Shown here: positions 2,784-61,381 of the stretch, one piece after another
Numbering within the stretch: the stretch's first letter is position 1
Layout: each line of letters opens with the position of its first letter
Assembly (NCBI GenBank): GCA_937124965.1
Contig: CAKZLB010000016.1
Coordinates: 24,712-88,711, forward strand
Direction of reading: 5' to 3'
DNA from: an uncultured Bacteroidota bacterium
GTDB taxonomy: Bacteria > Bacteroidota > Bacteroidia > NS11-12g > UBA9320
DNA length: 64,000 nucleotides
Notes under the pieces: generated by a model
Databases searched by the model: none
Seen by the model: the letters and a program-made list of their open reading frames with translations, nothing else
What the model was told of the DNA's origin: nothing
Position numbers and translations under genes: made by a program

Positions 2784-4373
2784 TCACTCCTTCTCCCAAT
2801 ACTCACTCATTTGAGCTTCGGCTTGACGTATCCAACTATCGTTTTGGATTAACGAGTCTTGATTTATCCAAGTCACTTTGCTATGTCGGGCGTCGGTCAA
2901 CGTTAGTTCAGGAATACTACCTCCAATATATTCTCCTTTATCGCCGGCTTTGGTTACAATGGTACTCAGCCACATAAACCTAGGTTTGCCATCAACTATG
3001 CGAACGAACGGACGACTTTCAGCTGGATAGTTTTTGCTCCAATCATAGTTCTTTTTGCTTTCAATGATTTTAGCCGTAATTGCACTACTTCCGATATACG
3101 AGTCTTTCGTTTTTCGATGGTCAATGAAGTATACTTTTTCGTCAGTATCGCCTGGAATTAATAAGCTCAAACTCAATCCTTTTTTACTCTCTTCGTACGG
3201 TTCTAATCCAAAAAAGTGGTACAACTTTTCATCATTTTTAACCTTAAAATAGGTCACAAATGGCTGTGGGTTTACATCGTTAGGCAATCTTGGGATCCGA
3301 ATATCGCCTTCGTGATAAAAAGGCATCGGTGCAAAAAAACCATTGGAAAAACGGAAGCTTTCGGCAGTAAAAGCAGCCACTCTTCGTGGAATAATATTTT
3401 GACCCTTTAAAAACGCGAACTCAGAAATTCGAGGAACAGAAACATAATCACCTCTACCTAACAAAACACGTTTCCAATACACGTCTTCGTCCCGTTTTTC
3501 GTGAATTACAAAAACACCATCAAACACAGGTCGAGGAAATAAAATTCCTTTCCAACGTACAATCGGTACTACTTGAACCCAGTGTCCATTATTGTCTTGA
3601 AGATATAATGGCGTTGCTGCTTCGCAATTTAAATATTGACTAATGTTAAATCGCTTCGTCACAGAGGCTTCCGTCTTTTTGCTAAACAACAAAAGCTCTC
3701 CAATATCAAAATTGACATCTTTTCTATATTTTCCGGAAAAGACAGGAGCCGGTAAGTTAGACGGCACATGCAAAATTTCGTACATGTTTTTTTGAAACTG
3801 TTGAAGCTTATAAGACCTCGATGGTCCAACGGCGCAACTAAAATAATACTGTCCGTCGTTGCCTCGAATGAATCTTGGCTCTGTAGCATCTTCGGTTTCA
3901 GAAAGTGCTTCTTGGTTTATTAACGTTCGTACCGAATGGATGGGCTGAATCCGTTCAAAATCTGTTTCGGGAAGCTCAGCCAGCGAAACTTTATTGATGG
4001 TTGAATAGTGAAAATACAAACTCAAATATTTGTAGATTCCTGGACCTGCAAAAAACGAAAACGCCCCAAAGCCTATTAACAAAATGGTAGAGAACACATT
4101 CTTCTTTCCTCCACGTTTCGACCACCCCTTAAAATACCAAACCAGAATTAACAAACATACCACAACAAGAAGGGCATACTTTCGGATGCCTAAAACAGTT
4201 GATTGTAACCCTGCACGATTAATGAATAAAAGTGCAACAATTAACAGAAAAAGTACCGTACTCCAAATGGGTTTGCGTTTGAAATAGGTCTTGAGACTCG
4301 TCCATAACTTGGTTCTGATGTTGTAAACAATCCAGTATAGGCGGTTTGTGATTTCTGGTTTAGGCTCTGTCAT
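2784..4373 (-). CDS. Polytopic membrane protein of unknown family: 3-4 N-terminal TM helices plus a roughly 400-aa C-terminal domain. It is the last gene of the candidate operon.
   Basis: 529 aa. Hydrophobic segments include IWSTVLFLLIVALLFI, YALLVVVCLLILVWYF and VFSTILLIGFGAFSFFAGPGIY. There is a 6-nt gap to the upstream gene. Confidence 0.7.
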   Translation of the reverse strand: MTEPKPEITNRLYWIVYNIRTKLWTSLKTYFKRKPIWSTVLFLLIVALLFINRAGLQSTVLGIRKYALLVVVCLLILVWYFKGWSKRGGKKNVFSTILLIGFGAFSFFAGPGIYKYLSLYFHYSTINKVSLAELPETDFERIQPIHSVRTLINQEALSETEDATEPRFIRGNDGQYYFSCAVGPSRSYKLQQFQKNMYEILHVPSNLPAPVFSGKYRKDVNFDIGELLLFSKKTEASVTKRFNISQYLNCEAATPLYLQDNNGHWVQVVPIVRWKGILFPRPVFDGVFVIHEKRDEDVYWKRVLLGRGDYVSVPRISEFAFLKGQNIIPRRVAAFTAESFRFSNGFFAPMPFYHEGDIRIPRLPNDVNPQPFVTYFKVKNDEKLYHFFGLEPYEESKKGLSLSLLIPGDTDEKVYFIDHRKTKDSYIGSSAITAKIIESKKNYDWSKNYPAESRPFVRIVDGKPRFMWLSTIVTKAGDKGEYIGGSIPELTLTDARHSKVTWINQDSLIQNDSWIRQAEAQMSEYWEKE

Positions 4374-4897: not shown

Positions 4898-6172
4898 TTA
4901 TTGGATTAAGTGATTGTAAATGTCTTTATGTTTCAAAATTTTATCGATAATCCATTGTTGGGTCTGGTCGTCCCACGATTGGTAATCGGTGTAGAATTTT
5001 GATTTATCAAAAAGGTACGTAATAACAGGGTTTGAATCATTGATATTAGACAACATCTTCCAAAGCACTTTTTTGTCACGTTGATTCAGATGACTCTTTG
5101 GATTGAGCAAGTAAGGAAAAAGGGATTGTGGCAAATCATCCGCGTTAATATTCTTTCCATCTCTTACGTCTCCAATTAATCGTTCAAATTCAAAATAAAC
5201 ATCTGGCAGATGCCCGTCTTGGAGTAATTTGTTTATCAGTCCTTTTTTCTGATTTTTATTTAATGAGATGTAATCATACTTTTTTCCTGAAGCGCTTATT
5301 GCACTCAACAGTACCTGCTCTTGCATCAAGTCAAGCATTGCTGGAAACTGGGCGTAAATGCTCAAATCGTTTGATATTAATCCAGCATTGTACAAGTAAC
5401 TCACCAGACTTGGGTCTTTGATATTATACTCTATATGGCCGTGTTTTGTTTCGCCAGAAACACTGGTTTTATTCCCACCATAAACGAGCAAGGGTTTGTT
5501 ATTTTTAAGTTTTTTAAAGACATATAATCCGTCAAAAGCCACCGTATGAAACGTGTCAATTTCATTAAATGGATGCGTCGGAATGTCGAGTTTCATGTAG
5601 CGTAAGTCACCATGTTTTTTGCATGATTCAATAATCTCTTTTCGCAAATCGTCATTCGACCAGGCATTTGGTTTATCGTAAAATTCGCTGATAAGCTCTC
5701 GTTGTTTTTGCGCTGCAAGCATTATTCGATCAACACTGTAGAAATTTACCTTGATGTAATCAATCATTAATAAATCTTGTGGTGATCTATACGCCGTAAT
5801 TTCTTGGTCCAATTCAAACCACAAACCAGATCGCGTAGTAATATCGGTGATTTGGTCTTTATAATGTTTGAATATTTTCTGATGTATTTGTCGATCGAAA
5901 CTATGATACGGCATGTATATAGCGCTATCTTCTTGTTTCGGAGTGATGATAATTCCGTATGGATTGGCAAGTCCATGCGATAAGTAAAAACGGTCATCTT
6001 GTTCTTCTGCAATCTGCGGGCTCCATCCCCAACCATCAATGTGAAACTGTTTTAATTTGGTAGGAGCGAGGCCAATATCTTCCAAGCACTCGTTGTACCG
6101 CTTTACTAACGATGGCGAGTAAATATCCACCAAATTGTGACCAAAAAGTTCGCTTTCGATAAGTTTAATCAT
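4898..6172 (-). CDS. Hypothetical 424-aa soluble protein with no recognised motif. Operon member.
   Basis: Long uninterrupted ORF. It overlaps the upstream AAA gene by 8 nt, suggesting translational coupling. Confidence 0.65.
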   Translation of the reverse strand: MIKLIESELFGHNLVDIYSPSLVKRYNECLEDIGLAPTKLKQFHIDGWGWSPQIAEEQDDRFYLSHGLANPYGIIITPKQEDSAIYMPYHSFDRQIHQKIFKHYKDQITDITTRSGLWFELDQEITAYRSPQDLLMIDYIKVNFYSVDRIMLAAQKQRELISEFYDKPNAWSNDDLRKEIIESCKKHGDLRYMKLDIPTHPFNEIDTFHTVAFDGLYVFKKLKNNKPLLVYGGNKTSVSGETKHGHIEYNIKDPSLVSYLYNAGLISNDLSIYAQFPAMLDLMQEQVLLSAISASGKKYDYISLNKNQKKGLINKLLQDGHLPDVYFEFERLIGDVRDGKNINADDLPQSLFPYLLNPKSHLNQRDKKVLWKMLSNINDSNPVITYLFDKSKFYTDYQSWDDQTQQWIIDKILKHKDIYNHLIQ

Positions 6173-9289: not shown

Positions 9290-10669
9290 TTAGTCCATCA
9301 AGTTATTGACTGAATCATTGGAAGGTTTGTTTGGTGTGCCATTGTCTTTAGGCGCGTCATCGTTGCCTGTCTTTTCGTGCTTAAACGAGAATGTTTCGCT
9401 TACATCAATTCCAAACTTTTTACCATGCTGTTCCATGATTTTAGCATCTTCTTCCTTGTATTTTGCCGTTGCTTCAGCCATTGCTACCAATACTTGATGC
9501 AATTCGGTCATACGTTTAGGATGTTTTTTAACACGTTCAATTCTATCTTTTTCAGAACCGACGAGCACTTTAGCAGCAATCTCAGTTATTTTTTGATCGG
9601 TTTTAACACCAGCTTCTTCATACATCGAAGCAGCTTCTTGCGCTGTTGCCGACTGAATTAATTGCAATCCAGATTCGTATGTTGCAACTCTTTCTTCTGT
9701 ATCACTCTTCAGCTGACCAATAAGCTGTTTAAGGTTGTTCTTAGTTGTGGTTTGAGCCTCAAGGTGGATAACAATTTGATCAACAAATCGCTCTTTTGAC
9801 TGAAAGATTCCCAATGCAATATTGAACTTACCTTTCAGGTCAGACCTACGTTCTTTTAAGTCGGCAACTTTCTTTTCTTGGGCAGTATACTCAGGGCTAT
9901 TGTTTGGCAACTCGGTAAGTTCGGTTTCGGCTTGCTTAAGTTCGTTTTCCGTTTGTTCAAGATCTGCCTTGCGATCTTCCATAATTGTCGCAGCCTTTTC
10001 TTTCGTTTCGAACGCAAGTTCTTTTCTATTTTTAAGTGAAACTATTTGTGCGTCAACATCGATAATCATGTTTTCTACAATACCCACCATGCCTTGTACC
10101 TGGCTGATGATTCGGTTTAGACTTTCTCCGATATCTGCGTTTTTAAGACGATCTCTATAACGTTTTTGAGCTTCTTCCTCTGCAGCTTTTAATGCAGAAA
10201 TCATTTGCTCAAGTTCTTCTTTACTCTTTTTTACTTTGCTGTTTTTGTAACCAAATAAAATATTCCAAGCATTCGACATACCCTCAGCGTCCATCACTTC
10301 AACTTCTGCTTTTTTACGAGCATTGCTGGCGTTTTCTACCAGTTTTTGTTCGGATGCATTAAGTTCTTGAAGCTTCGAAAACTCTCCTCCACAACTATCA
10401 AGCATTGATCGTAAGTGAAGCATTAGTTCTTGTAAATCCTGTTCCGTGGCTTCGACATCGCCATTTAAGGAGTCGAAATTTGCATTGATGATACCATCAA
10501 CAATTTCTTCTGAAGATCTATTTTCTTCAACCGCTTTTTCAATATCGGCTTCTATTTGGTCAAGTTTGGAGGTGATGTCCTCACCTGTTTTTTTTTCAAG
10601 TTTTGCTTTTAGGGTTTCTACTTTTTTTTGATCACCCAATTGGTCTAGCAAATCAAAGGAGTCTGACAT
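9290..10669 (-). CDS. Acidic coiled-coil protein, 459 aa and almost entirely helical with glutamate/lysine-rich heptads. It may be TelA-like or PspA/ESCRT-III-like. First gene of the operon.
   Basis: Composition and heptad-like runs such as KADLEQTENELKQAETELTEL and LKERRSDLKGKF. There are no TM segments. A divergent promoter region lies upstream. Confidence 0.65.
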   Translation of the reverse strand: MSDSFDLLDQLGDQKKVETLKAKLEKKTGEDITSKLDQIEADIEKAVEENRSSEEIVDGIINANFDSLNGDVEATEQDLQELMLHLRSMLDSCGGEFSKLQELNASEQKLVENASNARKKAEVEVMDAEGMSNAWNILFGYKNSKVKKSKEELEQMISALKAAEEEAQKRYRDRLKNADIGESLNRIISQVQGMVGIVENMIIDVDAQIVSLKNRKELAFETKEKAATIMEDRKADLEQTENELKQAETELTELPNNSPEYTAQEKKVADLKERRSDLKGKFNIALGIFQSKERFVDQIVIHLEAQTTTKNNLKQLIGQLKSDTEERVATYESGLQLIQSATAQEAASMYEEAGVKTDQKITEIAAKVLVGSEKDRIERVKKHPKRMTELHQVLVAMAEATAKYKEEDAKIMEQHGKKFGIDVSETFSFKHEKTGNDDAPKDNGTPNKPSNDSVNNLMD

Positions 10670-10695
10670 ATAATTCGTTTTAAGGTTAAGATGCC

Positions 10696-10703
10696 CAAAT
10701 TTA
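10696..10703 (-). promoter_or_regulatory. Candidate Bacteroidetes -7 promoter element TAAATTTG for the six-gene operon.
   Basis: The minus-strand sequence ...ttattaaaTTTGggcatc... lies about 30 nt upstream of the ATG at 10669 and matches the TAnnTTTG consensus. No clear -33 TTG was found. Confidence 0.3.
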
Positions 10704-10924
10704 ATAATTTAAACCTGACATCGATTATTATTTAAAGTTTAAGCCGACAGGAAAAAGGGATTATCGACTAAAAAATAGGGTAAGATTTGATGGTTGTTCA
10801 GTTTTTGTTGATAGATGATAAACGATTACATGATTGACACAGATATAGTTGACGATATTATTAGTTGTACGCGGTCATGCCGGAAAAGTTACATCGTATT
10901 TCGGGTTAAATATTGTTTCTTTGA

Positions 10925-11860
10925 ATGATGATTTCCGTCGTAATACCAATTTACAATGAAGAAGCCAACATCCTGCCCATGTATAAGCGGATGACTGCGG
11001 TTTTTGATAAGCTCAATTTGGATCGAGAATATGTTTATGTAAACGACGGAAGTGCGGATAAAAGCCAAGAAATTCTTATTGAATTAGCCAACGAGCATCA
11101 AGACGTAAAGTATATCAATTTTAGCAGAAATTTTGGGCATCAAATAGCGGTAAGTGCGGGGTTGGAGTTCTCGTCAGGCGATAAAATAGTAATCATCGAT
11201 GCTGATGGGCAAGATCCGCCAGAAGTAATTGAAGATTTATACCTCAAGAGCATCGAAGGATTTGAGGTGGTCTATGCAAAGCGAGCAGAGCGAAAAGGTG
11301 AGTCTGCCATGAAAAAAGCAACTGCGAAGTGGTTCTACCGAATATTAAACAAAATTATTCACTTCGACATCCCGCTAGATACTGGAGATTTTAGAATCAT
11401 GGATCGTAAGATTGTCAACCAATTGTTGATGATGCCAGAGCGACACAAGTTTCTTCGAGGACAAATATCTTGGATAGGTTTCAACCAAACGTATGTAACG
11501 TACAATCGGGAAGAACGCATGAGTGGTCAGACTGGATACAGTTATTCCAAAATGATTCGCTTTGCATTGGATGGAATTACATCGTTTAGTAATTGGCCGT
11601 TAAAAATTGCAACAATCAGTGGGTTTCTATTTTCGTTTATTGGTTTCTTGTTGATTTTATACACCCTGTATTCTCGGTATGTCATCAAAGATTATCAACC
11701 AGGGTGGGCGTCACAAATGGTAACAATGATTTTTATTGGAGGAATACAATTAATAGGAATTGGTATCATAGGAGAATATATAAGTCGGATGAATGAAAAC
11801 ATTAAGAACCGTCCGTTGTATATAGTTAAAGATTCGAATATTCCTCATGCATCAGATTGA
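10925..11860 (+). CDS. Family-2 glycosyltransferase, polyprenyl-phosphate sugar transferase type (GtrB/ArnC/DPM1-like), with two C-terminal TM helices.
   Basis: VVIPIYNEEANI...YVNDGSADKS...IIDADGQDPP are the DXD and GT-A motifs. The C-terminal TMs are ATISGFLFSFIGFLLILY and VTMIFIGGIQLIGIGIIGEY. Confidence 0.85.
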   Translation: MMISVVIPIYNEEANILPMYKRMTAVFDKLNLDREYVYVNDGSADKSQEILIELANEHQDVKYINFSRNFGHQIAVSAGLEFSSGDKIVIIDADGQDPPEVIEDLYLKSIEGFEVVYAKRAERKGESAMKKATAKWFYRILNKIIHFDIPLDTGDFRIMDRKIVNQLLMMPERHKFLRGQISWIGFNQTYVTYNREERMSGQTGYSYSKMIRFALDGITSFSNWPLKIATISGFLFSFIGFLLILYTLYSRYVIKDYQPGWASQMVTMIFIGGIQLIGIGIIGEYISRMNENIKNRPLYIVKDSNIPHASD

Positions 11861-13846: not shown

Positions 13847-14229
13847 AATTTAATTAATTAGGATTTGTTTTGTGGTACCAAAAGTATTGTGTACACAAGT
13901 GCTTTTTGTATCACAAACAGATTGTTTTCGATGTATTTGTAGTTAATTTTGCCTTAAAAAATGGCGGTGAGCCATATTTTTGCAACAATCAATACTGGTT
14001 GCCGAAATTTGGTTTGTGTTTGCATATATCGATTAAGAGGGCTTCATCTTTCATTTGCCTTTTGTATGAATAATTTTAGAATACTGAGCAAGACAAATCT
14101 CTGCATCGGACTTAGGTAATTTTCATCGAGTTATTGTAATTTTTTCGACTCCCGGCAGGCAGCAATAACGAAATGTGCTTTAACAAAGATACAATGAGTT
14201 AATACTACAATGAATAGATATTGGGGGTT

Positions 14230-14488
14230 TTAGTACTTCATAAACTTCACACAGCTTCCGTTTTCTGACCTGAGTATGTATAGTCCGCTTGTCAAATGTG
14301 AAATATCTTGACCAAGGTCAAAGTTGAATTCTTTTTCATCAAACACCATATTGCTGAGTGCGTTATAGATACGAACTAGATCTCTTTTTAGTTAGATGAA
14401 TGACATCAATGGCAGGGTTAGGGTAAATAACTAAATCAGGTTTAGGACTATTTTTAACATATGAATCCTCGATGTAATAAAGTTCCAT
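14230..14488 (-). pseudogene. Orphan, frame-disrupted remnant of a T9SS type-A C-terminal sorting domain.
   Basis: Minus-strand translations give MELYYIEDSYVKNSPKPDLVIYPNPAIDVIHLTKKRSSSYL*. In another frame the sequence reads IYNALSNMVFDEKEFNFDLGQDISHLTSGLYILRSENGSCVKFMKY*. These are typical CTD start (YPNPA.D...) and end (GLYIL...NG...K) motifs. They are separated by stops, and no cargo gene lies upstream. Confidence 0.6.
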
Positions 14489-17499: not shown

Positions 17500-17784
17500 A
17501 TGTCTAAGACGTGGTATAAAAATCGTTATTTTATTGTGTTTGCTGTGTTGGCAACATGGTTGGCGTTTTTTGACCAAAATAATTTTGTTTACCAATATCG
17601 ATTGGGAAAGCAAATAAAAGTACTACAAGACGAAAAAGAGTTTTATGAAAAGGAGATTGTTAAACTCAAAGAACAAAAGGAGTTGCTAAGTACTGATGAA
17701 GCCATGCTTGAGCGATTTGCTCGTGAGACCTATCGCATGAAAAAAGAGGATGAGGTTTTGTTTCTGCTGAAGGAAAAACCGTAA
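17500..17784 (+). CDS. Septum formation initiator family protein (FtsB/DivIC-like).
   Basis: 94 aa: an N-terminal TM, then a coiled coil, then the LERFARETYRMKKEDEVLF motif. Confidence 0.6.
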   Translation: MSKTWYKNRYFIVFAVLATWLAFFDQNNFVYQYRLGKQIKVLQDEKEFYEKEIVKLKEQKELLSTDEAMLERFARETYRMKKEDEVLFLLKEKP

Positions 17785-17820
17785 ACGCTAAGCCAGTACG
17801 CCTCGTAAGAATCTTTCTGA

Positions 17821-20097
<2,277 letters not shown>

Positions 20098-52744: not shown

Positions 52745-55076
52745 CAAAAGAGCAAAATTAATTGGAACATTAAGCAACTTGTACGAGCTTTCATTGTCAA
52801 TTGGAAGGAGTTTGAATCTAAACGAAAATTGTCAGTCGTTCTTCCAAAAGCTAACGCAACGTGTTAGTATTGATTTTATTACAATTCTGGAGATAAAAGG
52901 TCGAAATTTCAATCAACTATTTTCACTTCCGCGAAGTTTTATCAACTGCGATAACTGCGTGGATAATATCCACATACAACGATGTAACGAGATTGTTGAG
53001 ATTGATAAGCTGGAGGGGGCTATTTTAGAGAAAGGAAATCATTGGAATTACTTTTATTTCAGGAAAGGTCGATTCATCATATTTTTTATAAAGAATAAGA
53101 GTAGTGCGTTCGAGACTAAATTGTTTAGTAATCAGTTAAGCCCATTGTTCGATTTATTCTGTACTTCTGTAGAAGCTTGTCTATCACATAGTTTGCTTTT
53201 GAATGAGGTAATAAGGAGGCATGATTTAGAGGAAAGGCTTTATAATCGTGAGTCCATGCTTAAATCAGTAGTTAAAAGTCTCAATGATGGAATATTAGTG
53301 ACAGATGGCGATGAAAACGTAATATATTTTAATGAGAGGTTTATAGACATTACTGAATTGTCAAAGCAGGAATTGCACAGAAAAAAAGCAATACCATTAC
53401 TAAATGAATTGATAACTTCAGAAGATTTGTCCATGAATGCAGAAATGACTCTTACGAGATCTATACTGAGGGTAAAAACAGAAGGGGAAAAAATAGTGGA
53501 CATGAAAAAAACGACATTTCGCAATATTGCAAATAAAGTTTCTGGATCTATTTTTAGCTTAACAGATGTTACAGAAAATGTTAAGTTGTTTTCTAAGATA
53601 CAGAAGCAACGCCTCGAATTACAAGATTTGGTTGAGAATATGTACGATGCTGTTTTTATTGTATCTACTGATGGAACTTTGACTAAAGCAAACAAATCTG
53701 GAATAAAACTGATTGAAATAAAACCAGATGAACTTGGGTTAATTAATCTAACAGATTTAATAGTTTCCGAAGACAAAGAAAGGTTTTTTAATTCTTATTT
53801 TAAGAGGTTAAGAACTGAAGGTTTTTATTCACAGTATGAAGGTAGGATAATAACTCGACAAGGTAATTTAAAGCATGTTGAAGTTAACTCAACGGCAATT
53901 TTTAAAAATGGAATTCTTGTTGGGTCAAGAGATATTGTTCGTGAAGTAACTCAAAGGAAAATGGTCGAAATTGAACGAAAATATGAAAAAGAGAAATTAA
54001 GTAAAATTATTGATGGGGCATTAGATGCTGTAGTTTCAATAGATGCACAGGGACGGATTGTTGACTGGAATAATCAGGCGGTGAAAATATTTGGATACAA
54101 AAAAAAGGAGGTTAAGCATAAACCATTAATCAACACGATAATACCAAATAGTTACAAAAAGGCTCATTTGGCAGGTATGGAAAACTTTTTTAAAACTGGA
54201 ACCAGTTCTGTTTTGAACAAACGAGTTGAAATCGATGCACAAAATAAATGGGGTACGGTTTTTCCAATAGAGTTGACAATTATTCCAATAGAGACAGAGA
54301 TAGGCCTACTTTTTAGTTCGTTCATCAGAGACATAAGTGATCGAAAGAGACTTGAAAAAGAACAAATAAAACTAATTAACGAGGCAGAACAATTGAATCA
54401 AGAACTAAGAGATTTTGCTTATCTGGTCTCACATGATTTGAAGGCCCCTTTGAGAGGAATTGGGTCTATAGTAGACTGGATTACAGATGATTATGAAGAA
54501 TTATATGATGAAAAAGGAAAGGAATTATTGCAGTTACTTAAAGACCGGCTAAAACGAATGTATAATTTAATTGATGATATTTTAAATTATTCTCGAATTG
54601 GAAGACTAGAATCAAGTAATGAGATAATTAAACCATATGAAGTTATAACTGACGTTATTGAGACTTTAGAAATTCCCCCCAATTGCCAAATTAATATACA
54701 GCCTAACATGCCTAGAGTGTTTTATGACTATACACGACTGTATCAGGTGTTTCAAAATCTTATTAGTAATGCACTTAAGTTTAATGATAAAGATCGGGCT
54801 ATAATAGATATTCACTGTTTTGAGGTGGATGAGTTTATTCGTTTTGAAGTTAAAGATAATGGAATTGGAATTGCCCCAAAGTATCATGACAAAGTGTTTC
54901 AAATTTTTCAAACATTAGGTGAGCGAAATAGAGAGGACGATACTGGAATTGGTCTTAGTATTGTCAAAAGAATAATCGAATTGGGTGGAGGAACAGTAAC
55001 TTTGACATCAAAGTTAGGTACAGGGTGTACCTTTGCATTTACAATAAAAAAAAATGAATCAAATATTATTAATTGA
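52737..55076 (+). CDS. Multi-PAS sensor histidine kinase.
   Basis: H-box FAYLVSHDLKAPLRGI and HATPase_c motifs (NALKF, DNGIGI, GTGIGL) are present. Several PAS-like blocks precede them. Confidence 0.85.
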   Translation: MNSKRAKLIGTLSNLYELSLSIGRSLNLNENCQSFFQKLTQRVSIDFITILEIKGRNFNQLFSLPRSFINCDNCVDNIHIQRCNEIVEIDKLEGAILEKGNHWNYFYFRKGRFIIFFIKNKSSAFETKLFSNQLSPLFDLFCTSVEACLSHSLLLNEVIRRHDLEERLYNRESMLKSVVKSLNDGILVTDGDENVIYFNERFIDITELSKQELHRKKAIPLLNELITSEDLSMNAEMTLTRSILRVKTEGEKIVDMKKTTFRNIANKVSGSIFSLTDVTENVKLFSKIQKQRLELQDLVENMYDAVFIVSTDGTLTKANKSGIKLIEIKPDELGLINLTDLIVSEDKERFFNSYFKRLRTEGFYSQYEGRIITRQGNLKHVEVNSTAIFKNGILVGSRDIVREVTQRKMVEIERKYEKEKLSKIIDGALDAVVSIDAQGRIVDWNNQAVKIFGYKKKEVKHKPLINTIIPNSYKKAHLAGMENFFKTGTSSVLNKRVEIDAQNKWGTVFPIELTIIPIETEIGLLFSSFIRDISDRKRLEKEQIKLINEAEQLNQELRDFAYLVSHDLKAPLRGIGSIVDWITDDYEELYDEKGKELLQLLKDRLKRMYNLIDDILNYSRIGRLESSNEIIKPYEVITDVIETLEIPPNCQINIQPNMPRVFYDYTRLYQVFQNLISNALKFNDKDRAIIDIHCFEVDEFIRFEVKDNGIGIAPKYHDKVFQIFQTLGERNREDDTGIGLSIVKRIIELGGGTVTLTSKLGTGCTFAFTIKKNESNIIN

Positions 55077-55458
55077 CGATGAGGAAGTTGATTTAATGAC
55101 TTTTAAACGTGCTCACGAAACTTTAAATATTGCGGGTGAAGTTTCAATTGCACACAATGGTGAAGAGGCTCTGATGATGATGGAGAGTTTTGGATTACAG
55201 CCAGAGTTGATTTTCCTGGATATTAATATGCCAAGAATGAATGGGATAGAGTTTATTCAGATATTAAAATCCTATGAGGCCTATCGTGAAATTCCAATTG
55301 TAATACTAACTACCTCAAATCATCAAAGTGATAAGGAAGTTATGCATAGACATGGAATATATGGATACTTTGTTAAACCTTATGCTTTTAAGGATTATTT
55401 ATACATGTTAGACATTGTCTTAAAATATTGGAGTTTGTCTAAAAGGGCATATTCATGA
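55054..55458 (+). CDS. Single-domain response regulator (receiver only).
   Basis: LLIDDEEVD...FLDINMPRMNG...K. Confidence 0.8.
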   Translation: MNQILLIDDEEVDLMTFKRAHETLNIAGEVSIAHNGEEALMMMESFGLQPELIFLDINMPRMNGIEFIQILKSYEAYREIPIVILTTSNHQSDKEVMHRHGIYGYFVKPYAFKDYLYMLDIVLKYWSLSKRAYS

Positions 55459-57799: not shown

Positions 57800-58130
57800 A
57801 TTTTAATTTGGTAAGTAGTTATTGTCCTAAAATCAGTGTCATTTTTACTGTCACATTTTGGCACCATCTTCATTGTTAATGTCATTTTTAGATGAATGTT
57901 GCCTTTTGGTTTATTAAAGTCCTAACCTCTAATACTTTAACCTAATCAACGTTTTACACCCTTTATTTTAATTAAAAGCTACATAATTAAACCAATGTTG
58001 TGTATGGGGGTCAAACCTTTATTGACTATTCCAACAGAAAAAGTATCACATGAAAGTCTATAATAAACAGTCATTGGAGATAGTGGGTCTACTCAGCAAA
58101 AGACAGCATAAATGAAACGCATTGTAAACA

Positions 58131-58640
58131 AAAAAATATTAAATGCTTCTCGGCTTTAATACACCCAGGAACAAAGTTAGGCTTTAGAATATTTTGGTCA
58201 AACTTAAAGCACTGGTCGTCTTGTATAAGGCTAATTGTTAGTGTTTCTGTCTAGCCATCGATCAATGGTCAAAGCCCTATAAACGATGCGAAGCGCGGGC
58301 GGGCAAAAATAATCGGTGATGTATCTGCCTGGTCGTCAGACTGGCGCTGGAGGGTTTTGGTGGCCAAGGTGAGGAGGAGGGATTGAGCGAACCAAAACGA
58401 AGGGCATTATTATTTTTAAGTTTTTTCCATCAGAGGACGGACACGTCTTGTTTCGTTCTTTTTTAAAAAATAAGAATGAAAATCAGGTTATAGGGCTGGT
58501 AAGCCCTAATGGAAGATTTAAGGTTTCGGATTGATGGTTAGTAACTTGATCATTTGAGATACTAAATCTGAACGTGGTATAACTTGACGGTGAAGCATTA
58601 AATATTCACTTAATTTGATAAACCGCTTGGTTGAAGAATG
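58131..58640. repeat. Copy A of a roughly 500-bp direct repeat (non-coding, GC-rich core, several hairpins).
   Basis: Near-identical to 59196..59700 apart from a 45-bp indel and scattered mismatches. Both copies share the core ...gatgcgaagcgcggg.ggc.aaaaataatcgg.gatgt.tctgcctggtcgtcagactggcgctggagggttttggtggccaaggtgaggaggagggattgagcgaaccaaaacgaagggc... and the hairpin tagggct-ggta-agcccta. Confidence 0.85.
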
Positions 58641-58649
58641 AGAAGTGTG

Positions 58650-58985
58650 TTATCGAATACTAATTTGTCTAATTTGCCTTGCTAAATTAAATATTTTGCT
58701 AACTAAAGTTTCGGTATCATCTAACATTACAATGTGACACTTACTATTTGCGTCTTTAAATGATCTTACAGTTCTGAAGTCTTGTTTCTTTTCGCTCTCA
58801 TATTTAACAAAAAGAATGTCGGGTTTTAAGTGAATGTCATTGATACAGTCTATCTGATTAGAATATGGTACAATATTTTTGAACCCAAATCGGATTAGTG
58901 AGTCTATGACCCTTTTCCTGTAATACTCATCGCTCGACAGAACAAAAACTTTCATTGCCAAGATTGAATTAATTTCTGTTACCAT
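58650..58985 (-). CDS. Atypical receiver-like (pseudo-receiver) small protein between the repeat copies.
   Basis: MKVFVLSSDEYYRKRVIDSL...PDILFVKYES...CHIVMLDDTETL is a CheY-like topology, but a Lys sits at the expected phospho-acceptor Asp position. Confidence 0.35.
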   Translation of the reverse strand: MVTEINSILAMKVFVLSSDEYYRKRVIDSLIRFGFKNIVPYSNQIDCINDIHLKPDILFVKYESEKKQDFRTVRSFKDANSKCHIVMLDDTETLVSKIFNLARQIRQISIR

Positions 58986-59195
58986 TGAATCAAAATACTT
59001 TTAACATAAAATTAGAAATAACTCTTAATAATACTTTCGTTTGTGTGGTGATGATCCGTCTGACCACTGCGAACTTACTGCAGAAACTCAGGTGAGGGAT
59101 TTGAAATAGTTAATTGGTTCTATAAGCAAGGTAAGACGTTTAAATTTTAGGTTAGGTGGTGTTTTTCTTGTCATTTCTAGGTTGAGTTTAATATT

Positions 59196-59700
59196 TTTTT
59201 AAATGCTTCTCGGCTTTAATACACCCAGGAATAAAGTTAGGCTTTAGAATATCTTGGTCAAACTTAAAGTCCATGTCGTCCTGTATTGGGCTAATCATTC
59301 CACCATTTGTCGGACACGTAGTAGCTGTAAAGACCAAATTATTAGTGTTTCTGTCTAGCCATCGATCAATGGTCGAAGCCATAGTATCTAAAACGATGCG
59401 AAGCGCGGGTGGCCAAAAATAATCGGCGATGTGTCTGCCTGGTCGTCAGACTGGCGCTGGAGGGTTTTGGTGGCCAAGGTGAGGAGGAGGGATTGAGCGA
59501 ACCAAAACGAAGGGCATTATTATTTTTATGTTTTTTCCGTCAGAGGACGGACACGTCTTGTTTCGTTCTTTTTTCAAAAAAAGAATGAAAGCCGGGTTAT
59601 AGGGCTGGTAAGCCCTAATGGAAGATTAAAGGTTTCGGATTGATGATTAGTAGCTTGATCATTTGAGATACTACATCTGAAAGTGGTATAACATTACGGT
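59196..59700. repeat. Copy B of the roughly 500-bp direct repeat. It contains an 86-codon minus-strand ORF that is disrupted in copy A.
   Basis: See copy A. The minus-strand ORF translates ...RHIADYFWPPALRIVLDTMASTIDRWLDRNT.... Confidence 0.85.
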
Positions 59701-59910
59701 GAAGCATTTTTTTTTAACTAGCCCTCTGGTCCTAATTTAGGGTATTACTACAGCAGGCACTGAGGGAAACGATATGAAGGATTTTTAACCATGCATATTT
59801 TAGCGTCCGTTAGTTTTGAGCGATTAAATATTTAAATAAAATTAGTTAAGTAGTTTATATATGTTGTTGAATTATTTGATTTGATTGTTCATCTGACTTA
59901 AAACGCAGTT

Positions 59911-59948
59911 AATCGTGTGTATTTTTAACACACGATGATTTTTTTTTT
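59911..59948 (+). terminator. Strong intrinsic terminator with no obvious upstream ORF.
   Basis: atcgtgtgt-atttttaa-cacacgat is a 9 bp stem followed by T10. Confidence 0.6.
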
Positions 59949-60171
59949 GACTTATTTTGAACCTCATTGTTGATGTAAGGGAGATATGGCCTATAATTCC
60001 AATTTACTCATTAAAAATGTGAGATAGAAGATAAGTTAAGAACTCGAATTTTAAGTAAGGGGAGTCATCATAATCATACCTTATCAAGATTTTCTATAAA
60101 GCTGGGAAGCTTAATAGTTTTTTCATTTCAAGTTCCGCAGTTGGGACAATAATAGTTAGTAGTAGTATCCT

Positions 60172-60195
60172 GGGGCTTCTGATGAAGCCCCTTTT
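60172..60195 (+). terminator. Hairpin terminator candidate.
   Basis: ggggcttc-tgat-gaagcccc is an 8 bp stem followed by tttt. Confidence 0.4.
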
Positions 60196-60685
60196 AAGAT
60201 AATTAAAATCTATTGATGGATAAGGTGAACCTCCAAATGTCTAGCATCAACCCTTATGAGTTATTAAATTCCATCAGCTTATCGTTGTACTTTTTTCTGA
60301 TCTGAGACCAGATGTTTCATTCTTTCTGGGATTTAAGCTTACACCACTAGCAAAGAAAATAGATGGTTGTTTAAATTTTATTCGATGAAGATTATTTAAA
60401 TGTAGTTAAGTAGTTTTATTTGGAACTAAAAACGTGTCAAATGGAAGGTGGTTGACATCATGTGGATGGAGGTTTGTAAAAGGCACTTGTTATTTTTGAA
60501 AATCAATGTAATTTGAAAAGGTATCGATTCATTTAATAGGACAGACGGTCAAATTATTCATACTTGATGAACATGAAGTTATTAGCTTTAGTTTTAACAT
60601 TGTGCTAAAGTATCAGCTGCTGGGTTTATTCAAAATTGTCTTTAAAATGTTAAAACTTTTCTTGTCTTTAAAATGTTATTTGTGA

Positions 60686-61381
60686 ATGCTAAAATGTATA
60701 ATCTTAGAAGACGACGAGTTAGCTGCCGCCTCACTGAAAGCCATTATAAACCGGACTACTATATGTAAATGTTTAGGTGTGTTTGATAATGCATTTACTG
60801 CTATTAAAAATACTGATTTTAACTTGATTGATGTCGTGTTCGTGGATATCAACCTTCCTGATATTAATGGTTTGGATTTCATTAAGGCAGTTCCAGTATC
60901 ACTTAATGTAATAATCACGACCTCAGAAAAAAAATTTGCTTACGATGCATTAAACTTGTCTATAACAGAATTTATATTAAAACCCGTTACCATTGCTTCA
61001 GTTACGAAATCTTTAAACGTAATCTATCATCGCTTGTCAAACTCACGAATACTACAACATAATAAAGCTATTTTTATAAAAGTTGATTCAAGATTTATAA
61101 ACATAAAACTAAATAATATTCTTTTTATTGAAGCATTTGGAGATTATATAAAAATTTATCAAAATGATATTTCAAAAGTGGTCTTAGTCAAAATGACATT
61201 GACTGGAATGTTAAAACAGCTGGATGAAAATACGTTTTGTAAAGTCCATCGTTCATATGTCGTCAACCTTGACTTCATACAAACCATCGATGATTCGTCT
61301 TTGGTGATAAACGGAAAACTAATACCTATTAGCAGAAGCAACAGGCAAACGTTGCTCAACAAACTGAACCTACTTAAGTAA
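60686..61381 (+). CDS. LytTR-family two-component response regulator.
   Basis: Receiver (IILEDDE...VFVDINLPDING) plus a C-terminal LytTR DNA-binding domain (...FCKVHRSYVVNLDFI...). Confidence 0.8.
   Translation: MLKCIILEDDELAAASLKAIINRTTICKCLGVFDNAFTAIKNTDFNLIDVVFVDINLPDINGLDFIKAVPVSLNVIITTSEKKFAYDALNLSITEFILKPVTIASVTKSLNVIYHRLSNSRILQHNKAIFIKVDSRFINIKLNNILFIEAFGDYIKIYQNDISKVVLVKMTLTGMLKQLDENTFCKVHRSYVVNLDFIQTIDDSSLVINGKLIPISRSNRQTLLNKLNLLK

Follow-up and report, generated by a model that had tools for sequence, protein, structure and literature searches.

Organization of the locus

Two direct repeats, 58139-58600 and 59199-59710, were aligned (repeat search and MAFFT) in a stretch of 2.9 kb lying within a 64-kb window, the window being the whole length of DNA analyzed, with a GC content of 0.370. 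The similarity between the copies begins and ends at terminal inverted repeats, which delimit a MITE-like element of 458 bp in copy A (58142..58599) and of 507 bp in copy B (59202..59708); here and below, features given without a strand are not assigned to either one. Within the element boundaries, 427 of the 457 aligned bases were identical (93.4%), so the near-identical direct repeats reported in the preliminary description of the locus were borne out. The single 45-bp indel of that description is present as well, but its size is 44 bp, and it is accompanied by indels of 6 bp and 1 bp, which brings the number of indels between the copies to three; copy B has the 44 bp and the 6 bp missing from copy A. 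The copies have the same (direct) orientation and are 1060-1110 bp apart, and blastn revealed no third copy in the window, two being the total there. The differences between copies A and B are not adenine-specific, and template and variable repeats of a diversity-generating retroelement were rejected on this basis.

The GC content, calculated over 100 nt at a time, was 0.53-0.55 at 58250-58399 in copy A and 0.51-0.60 at 59350-59499 in copy B, which agrees with the GC-rich core described earlier against a background of approximately 37% (51-60% versus 37% for the window). The core is also the least diverged part between the two copies and contains a stretch of 95 nt without any difference between them (P of about 0.02 under uniform divergence).

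The interval surrounding the copies contains few ORFs, as had been described, but it is not gene-free, since an ORF of 111 aa is located between the copies on the minus strand (58650-58985); a Pfam search with this ORF gave no match. Two intrinsic terminators had been noted in this interval, and both were found: the first was recovered by the terminator scan at 59912-59946, and the second (60173-60195), which missed the T-run rule of the scan, is visible in the sequence as GGGGCTTC-TGAT-GAAGCCCC followed by TTTT. The minus-strand ORF noted earlier in copy B likewise exists, with its frame broken in copy A; it measures 64 aa from the ATG and 85 codons from an in-frame TGA. If the reading on the minus strand of copy B starts at an ATG further upstream, it comprises 109 codons with this one in-frame TGA. 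The conceptual protein had no match in Pfam or NCBIfam, and a word-indexed search of 5.8 billion proteins gave no homologue sharing words with it. An exhaustive HMMER search with the 85 codons against 1.84 billion representative proteins gave three weak matches; the two that were read in sequence are internally repetitive proteins, and their scores add up from short segments resembling chance matches.

Terminal inverted repeats and target-site duplications

Both copies end in a 12-nt imperfect terminal inverted repeat, AATGCTTC[T/A]C[G/C]G. A pattern search with this 12-mer gave only four matches in the 64 kb, and these are the four element ends in inverted orientation: AATGCTTCTCGG at 58142..58153 (plus strand) and AATGCTTCACCG on the minus strand at 58588..58599 in copy A, and 59202..59213 (plus strand) and 59697..59708 (minus strand) in copy B. 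Past the 12 nt, the inverted repeats continue with weaker similarity up to about 26 nt. An 8-bp direct repeat lies immediately outside the ends of each copy. In copy A, the left duplication AAATATTA (58134..58141) and the right duplication AAATATTC (58600..58607) match at seven of eight positions, while in copy B, TTTTTTTA is found on the left (59194..59201) and on the right (59709..59716) with a match of 8/8. The terminal inverted repeats and the 8-bp flanking direct repeats had been overlooked by the earlier reader.

The duplications are A/T-rich and differ in sequence between copy A and copy B. According to the null frequencies estimated over all positions of the window, a match of at least 7/8 occurs at about 6e-4 and a match of 8/8 at about 4e-5; it is very unlikely that both flank matches arose by chance at boundaries fixed by the inverted repeats. 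Because each copy has a duplication of its own, two insertion events are indicated, rather than a segmental duplication. The preliminary description had proposed a pair of structured ncRNA genes and had named additional genomic copies bounded by terminal inverted repeats and target-site duplications as evidence that would speak against them; such ends were found in both copies, related copies are dispersed through other genomes, and the two repeats are most likely not a pair of RNA genes.

Hairpins and features inside the element

The part of the element conserved in related loci spans 58280..58520 in copy A (nhmmer, alignment A2) and 59392..59625 in copy B (blastn, nhmmer, alignment A2), on the minus strand in both cases, the orientation being relative to the related loci. 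Outside this part, the window element has a further 190 bp and 83 bp, for which the other loci contain no equivalent.

The GC-rich core hairpin (59415..59527 in copy B) is built on two stems. Its outer stem is formed by AAAAATAAT (59415-59423) pairing with ATTATTTTT (59519-59527), and its inner stem by GTTTTGG (59464-59470) and CCAAAAC (59502-59508), which correspond to 58354-58360 and 58392-58398 in copy A. Also within the hairpin is the in-frame TGA mentioned above, carried by an insert of about 21-28 nt that is specific to the window. The core hairpin is followed by an optional GC hairpin, CCGTC-AGAG-GACGG, with a T-rich run (59537..59580 on the plus strand; about 58427-58470 in copy A), which is terminator-like and was matched by the terminator scan at 58434-58449 in copy A and at 59544-59559 in copy B; this module is present in some family copies and absent in others. 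The A/T-rich hairpin TTTCGTTCTTTTTT-C-AAAAAAAGAATGAAA (59561..59590), identified using the arm HMM and showing compensatory C-G to U-A changes, is the inverted-arm motif of the repeat family found in MAGs (see below). A REP-like hairpin, TAGGGCT-GGTA-AGCCCTA, is located at 59600..59617 in copy B and at 58491-58508 in copy A; its stem shows compensatory changes across the family and is absent elsewhere in the window. This hairpin and the GTTTTGG/CCAAAAC pair had both been pointed out earlier, and they were found in both copies. With the arm HMM, just one arm was detected per window copy, without a second one in inverted orientation, and each copy has one hairpin.

A dispersed repeat family in marine Bacteroidia

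The conceptual peptide of copy B, which served purely as a degenerate DNA probe, was used in a scan of one genome per species and identified 12 loci in three MAGs of uncultured Bacteroidia, at least eight of them on one chromosome of 3.07 Mb. A DNA pattern composed of the most conserved blocks added 21 loci on metagenome contigs, many of which duplicate MAG loci or organisms, and gave zero matches in viral contigs. At least 20 intergenic copies, from the three marine Bacteroidia MAGs and the metagenome contigs, share 70-73% identity with the core of copy B. A phage or plasmid origin was rejected, with no match in viral contigs, phages, or plasmids.

The family unit in the MAGs is 340-520 bp in size and is bounded by two inverted arms, as determined using the arm HMM. 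The arm consists of the REP-like hairpin TAGGGC-nnnn-GCCCTA, in many cases with CGTCG or CTTCG in front of it, the A/T-rich hairpin TTTCATTCTTTTT...AAAAAGAACGAAA, and, optionally, a GC hairpin with a T-rich run after it. The interior is built of modules, one being the GC-rich core found in the window and another a second long A/U-closed hairpin; in some copies, quite different cargo was found between the same arms, for example, at 13924-14292 and 17593-17977 of locus L008 and at 3968-4329 of locus L007. Arrays of additional REP-like hairpins lie beside many of the MAG copies, and one MAG contig (L006) has tandem copies with a period of 426 bp. All family copies in the MAGs are intergenic and occur in every orientation relative to neighboring genes. 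Among the ORFs of MAG elements that were read, no small hydrophobic one was found, and a type I toxin-antitoxin system was rejected.

No target-site duplication was found around the MAG elements at any offset, and the inverted-repeat motif of the window element is absent from all 33 related loci. An autonomous element with these inverted repeats was found neither in the window nor in the 33 related loci, nor in plasmid or phage collections; the gene flanking the window element has its nearest homologue in the protein database at just 54% identity. Judged by its sequence organization, the MAG family resembles REP, BIME, and REPIN elements rather than a classical MITE.

It should be noted that the best protein shared by the window genome and the MAGs is 43% identical, compared with an identity of 70-73% for the non-coding core, which fits a module that either moves horizontally or is strongly constrained. 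In two of the MAGs, an element is positioned identically, immediately behind the stop codon of one and the same gene, with flanking genes only 70% identical. Together with the 95-nt run free of differences between copies A and B and with several sequence blocks that are invariant across all 24 family sequences, this shared position argues for some constraint on the core.

Base pairing and search for an RNA

The structured ncRNAs proposed earlier found no counterpart in Rfam 15: there was no match at the gathering threshold in the whole window or at the E-value threshold, and only chance-level matches were obtained at E up to 10 in the interval 57800-60700. The same search of the related loci gave tRNAs only, none of them on the element. 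By eye, no promoter of the Bacteroidetes type (TAnnTTTG) was found upstream of the core on the plus strand.

In the alignment of 24 distinct sequences, the share of paired cells in the hairpins was 98.1%; it was 96.0% for shuffles and 48-63% for slid partners. Compensatory change was found at five pairs, with almost all of the signal in the REP-like and arm hairpins. The core stems AAAAATAAT/ATTATTTTT and GTTTTGG/CCAAAAC did not vary in the 24 sequences and are therefore uninformative on pairing, providing no evidence of covariation. The covariation named in the preliminary description as a check on the hairpins was recovered in the outer hairpins but not in the two invariant core stems. In the other module of the MAG units, the second long hairpin, a compensatory change of the closing stem from CCAAAAATGC/GCATATTTTTGG to ACAGAAATGC/GCATATTTCTGT was recognized by eye. 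Non-Watson-Crick pairs (G-U versus A-C) gave a mixed picture with no consistent strand bias. The z-scores of the folds relative to shuffles were -2.5 on the plus strand and -3.1 on the minus strand; such similarity of the two strands is expected of DNA palindromes.

Origin of the two copies

According to the structure of the ends and the interior, it was concluded, with a probability of about 0.78, that copies A and B are two separate insertions of one non-autonomous chimeric MITE that shares an interior module with a REP-bounded family of marine Bacteroidia. The element has inverted repeats at both ends, an 8-bp duplication specific to each copy, a small size, and no transposase gene. Its interior is chimeric in that about 230 bp belong to the conserved, hairpin-dense, GC-rich module of the dispersed family. 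The alternative of a mobile element mentioned in the preliminary description has become the better reading, although the copies are complete small elements and not a degenerate end.

A transposase encoded elsewhere in the genome would bind the inverted repeats and cut the target with an 8-bp stagger, and the GC-rich core would be carried along as a passenger or accessory module. The empty sites predicted from such insertions are GTTGAGTTTAATATTTTTTTAACTAGCCCTCTGG for copy B and GTAAACAAAAAAATATT[A/C]ACTTAATTTGATAAACC for copy A. The stacked hairpins, including the plus-strand hairpin with its T-run, may constitute a candidate terminator or an RNA-stabilizing block for neighboring genes; a portable terminator role of the core is plausible because the terminator-like hairpin and the T-run are present in both copies, and an RNA-stabilizing role is plausible as well. 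The sequence is explicable without an independent RNA gene. Against insertion of a chimeric MITE stand the limitation to two copies in 64 kb, the failure to find an autonomous element with the same inverted repeats in the sequences searched, the element at the same position in two MAGs, and a core that appears better conserved than expected of a passive passenger. In this connection, the GC-rich hairpin module of about 100 nt might be a functional unit captured by two mechanistically different types of repeat, namely, one bounded by REP hairpins without target duplication (in the MAGs) and a transposon (in the window) that ends in inverted repeats and duplicates 8 bp of its target; this is an unlikely, though not negligible, extension, in which the captured module might serve as a portable terminator or as an insulator, or else act as an RNA in the propagation of the element itself.

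A rival reading takes the core to be a functional small or cis-acting RNA, transcribed from the plus strand and ending at the hairpin with its U-run at about 58470 and 59580, with the two copies being paralogous RNA genes carried on a mobile element. The terminator-like hairpin with its T-run on the plus strand of both copies is consistent with such an RNA, as are folding energies below those of shuffles on both strands, the retention of the hairpins over 24 sequences, in which 98% of the cells pair and five pairs change in a compensatory way, blocks invariant across distant genomes, and the low divergence of the core between copies A and B. However, neither an Rfam match nor an upstream promoter of the type described was found, the compensatory changes are confined to the outer REP-like and arm hairpins with the core stems invariant, the G-U versus A-C asymmetry is mixed, the z-scores are similar on both strands, and the family copies occur in every orientation relative to their neighbors. 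A functional RNA of this kind was accordingly considered rather improbable. A self-standing small RNA gene has a low probability, the whole of its positive support being conservation and the terminator-like site.

Local duplication of a segment of about 1.1 kb in tandem, with the inverted and flanking repeats arising by coincidence, could account for the direct orientation and the spacing of the copies and has a parallel in the 426-bp tandem copies of L006. Nevertheless, copy B is not followed by a repeat of the 590 bp that separate the copies, the similarity stops exactly at the inverted repeats, and the chance of obtaining both of the distinct, internally matched 8-bp flanks is roughly 1e-7, without correction for the choice of boundary, which makes such a duplication highly improbable. 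The copies could also be remnants of a decayed minus-strand protein gene, in one variant a gene for a selenoprotein read through the in-frame TGA, and the ORF of copy B with its three possible extents (64 aa, 85 codons after the TGA, and 109 codons from the upstream ATG) is what suggests it. The protein searches gave no more than three weak matches, two of them chance-like on reading; the TGA lies inside the insert missing from all 22 related copies, most of the differences between copies A and B within the ORF are non-synonymous, and the reading frame is broken by the 44-bp indel. With no real homologue and with family indels that are not multiples of three, the pseudogene suggested earlier was rejected, and a decayed gene in any variant appears improbable in the extreme. 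A selenoprotein with a SECIS element after the TGA was rejected separately, the TGA insert being specific to the window and absent from every relative.

Implications for annotation

In the annotation of the locus, two insertions of a small transposon replace the candidate pair of ncRNA genes, and the two insertions account for an ORF-poor and hairpin-dense stretch of 2.9 kb. The modular intergenic repeat family of marine Bacteroidia, with inverted arms tipped with REP-like hairpins, interchangeable interiors, and a core also located inside an unrelated mobile element of a distant genome, was not found described in the literature searched. If the core proves functional, for example, as a portable terminator or in transposition, this would be of moderate interest; at present, the element belongs to an ordinary class of features.

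Comparison with known systems

Bacterial MITEs include the Correia/NEMIS elements of Neisseria and the RUP elements of Streptococcus pneumoniae. MITEs have also been described in Porphyromonas gingivalis (PMC5771137) and Cardinium (PMC9769881). The window element is similar to MITEs in its small size, non-coding character, inverted repeats, copy-specific target duplication, A/T-rich intergenic site, hairpin-rich interior, and terminator-like features. Unlike MITEs, it has no known parent insertion sequence and only two copies in 64 kb, and its interior shares a module with a different, REP-bounded repeat family of Bacteroidia.

Families of paralogous sRNAs in Bacteroidota, such as FopS (Rfam RF04319), are likewise multi-copy and intergenic and have a hairpin with a U-run at one end, whereas no promoter was found for the element and its copies bear transposon ends. 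The sole Rfam signal (23.5 bits versus a gathering threshold of 56) was located at the dnaA terminator of L004, outside the element.

REP, BIME, and REPIN elements and RAYT transposases have been described (PMC3116915, PMC2817692), and CGTC-tagged REPs with stems of 8-9 bp and no dedicated transposase are known in Bacteroidetes, including G. forsetii (PMC3733652). The MAG relatives are similar to REP, BIME, and REPIN elements in their short GC-rich inverted end hairpins, often after CGTCG or CTTCG, in their extragenic arrays, in the lack of target duplication, and in the compensatory changes of their stems. The stems are 6-7 bp here compared with 8-9 bp in the CGTC family, so the resemblance to CGTC-tagged REPs is a lead, and membership is not claimed. 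REPINs are about 100 bp in size, whereas the MAG elements are 340-520 bp and have conserved interior modules. The paired inverted hairpins characteristic of REPINs were found in the MAG relatives, 340-520 bp apart, but not in the window, where each copy has a single hairpin and is delimited instead by inverted-repeat ends with an 8-bp duplication.

Modular Structure of the Repeat Family

Two elements of locus L008 (13924–14292 and 17593–17977) and an element of locus L007 (3968–4329), both from the set of related loci carrying the family, had the inverted arms and the right-hand module of the other family members but a completely different left-hand interior. Judging by these sequences, the cargo of the repeat family is therefore interchangeable. 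Elements at a common position were found in two MAGs (L003, 9888–10294, and L012, 7063–7506), in both of which the element directly followed the stop codon of a shared 282-aa gene. The flanking genes of these two loci were ~70% identical, and the right-hand variants of their elements differed, which suggests that the element either was retained for a long time and underwent gene conversion or inserted repeatedly at this site.

REP-like hairpins with a spacing of 30–55 nt formed arrays, with a maximum of six hairpins per array, at L005 (9622–9889), L001 (10245–10440), and L004 (9780–9890 and 10255–10400). In these arrays, the orientation of the hairpins was uniform on each side of the element and opposite between the sides, and many of the hairpins were preceded by CGTCG or CTTCG. 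At L006 (4606–5147), the element was present in direct tandem copies with a period of 426 bp, which continued past the contig end. The contigs of L010 and L024, which were 96–97% identical, had a difference of ~850 bp (10337–11189 and 5670–5723, respectively) beginning within the element's right arm; compared with L010, L024 was devoid of this arm, of the REP hairpin, and of the greater part of a 316-aa gene. This difference may represent a deletion whose start adjoins the element.

Window Copies and Adjacent Sequences

The sequence TTCCACCATTTGTCGGACACGT (59298–59319), located within the 44 bp missing from copy A, was 77% similar to the optional hairpin-ACACGT module at 59535–59556 in copy B. 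Based on this similarity, the left portion of the element, which is specific to the window copies, may represent a second, decayed unit arranged in direct orientation.

Downstream of copy B, a 970-bp stretch was free of ORFs and contained two terminator-like hairpins on the plus strand (59912–59946 and 60173–60195). A sigma-70-like promoter match (59970–59997) and the second of these hairpins would bracket a putative transcript of ~190 nt. The 25-nt motif TTAAATAAAATTAGTTAAGTAGTTT occurred twice after copy B (59832–59856 and 60392–60416, identity = 84%).

Between copies A and B, the minus strand carried a 111-aa ORF (58650–58985; no match in Pfam), the product of which, beginning with MKVFVLSSDE and assessed by eye, resembles the receiver domain of response regulators. 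The usual acidic residues of this domain were absent on visual inspection. Real response regulators were located on either side of the region (55054–55458 and 60686–61381), the latter containing a LytTR domain.
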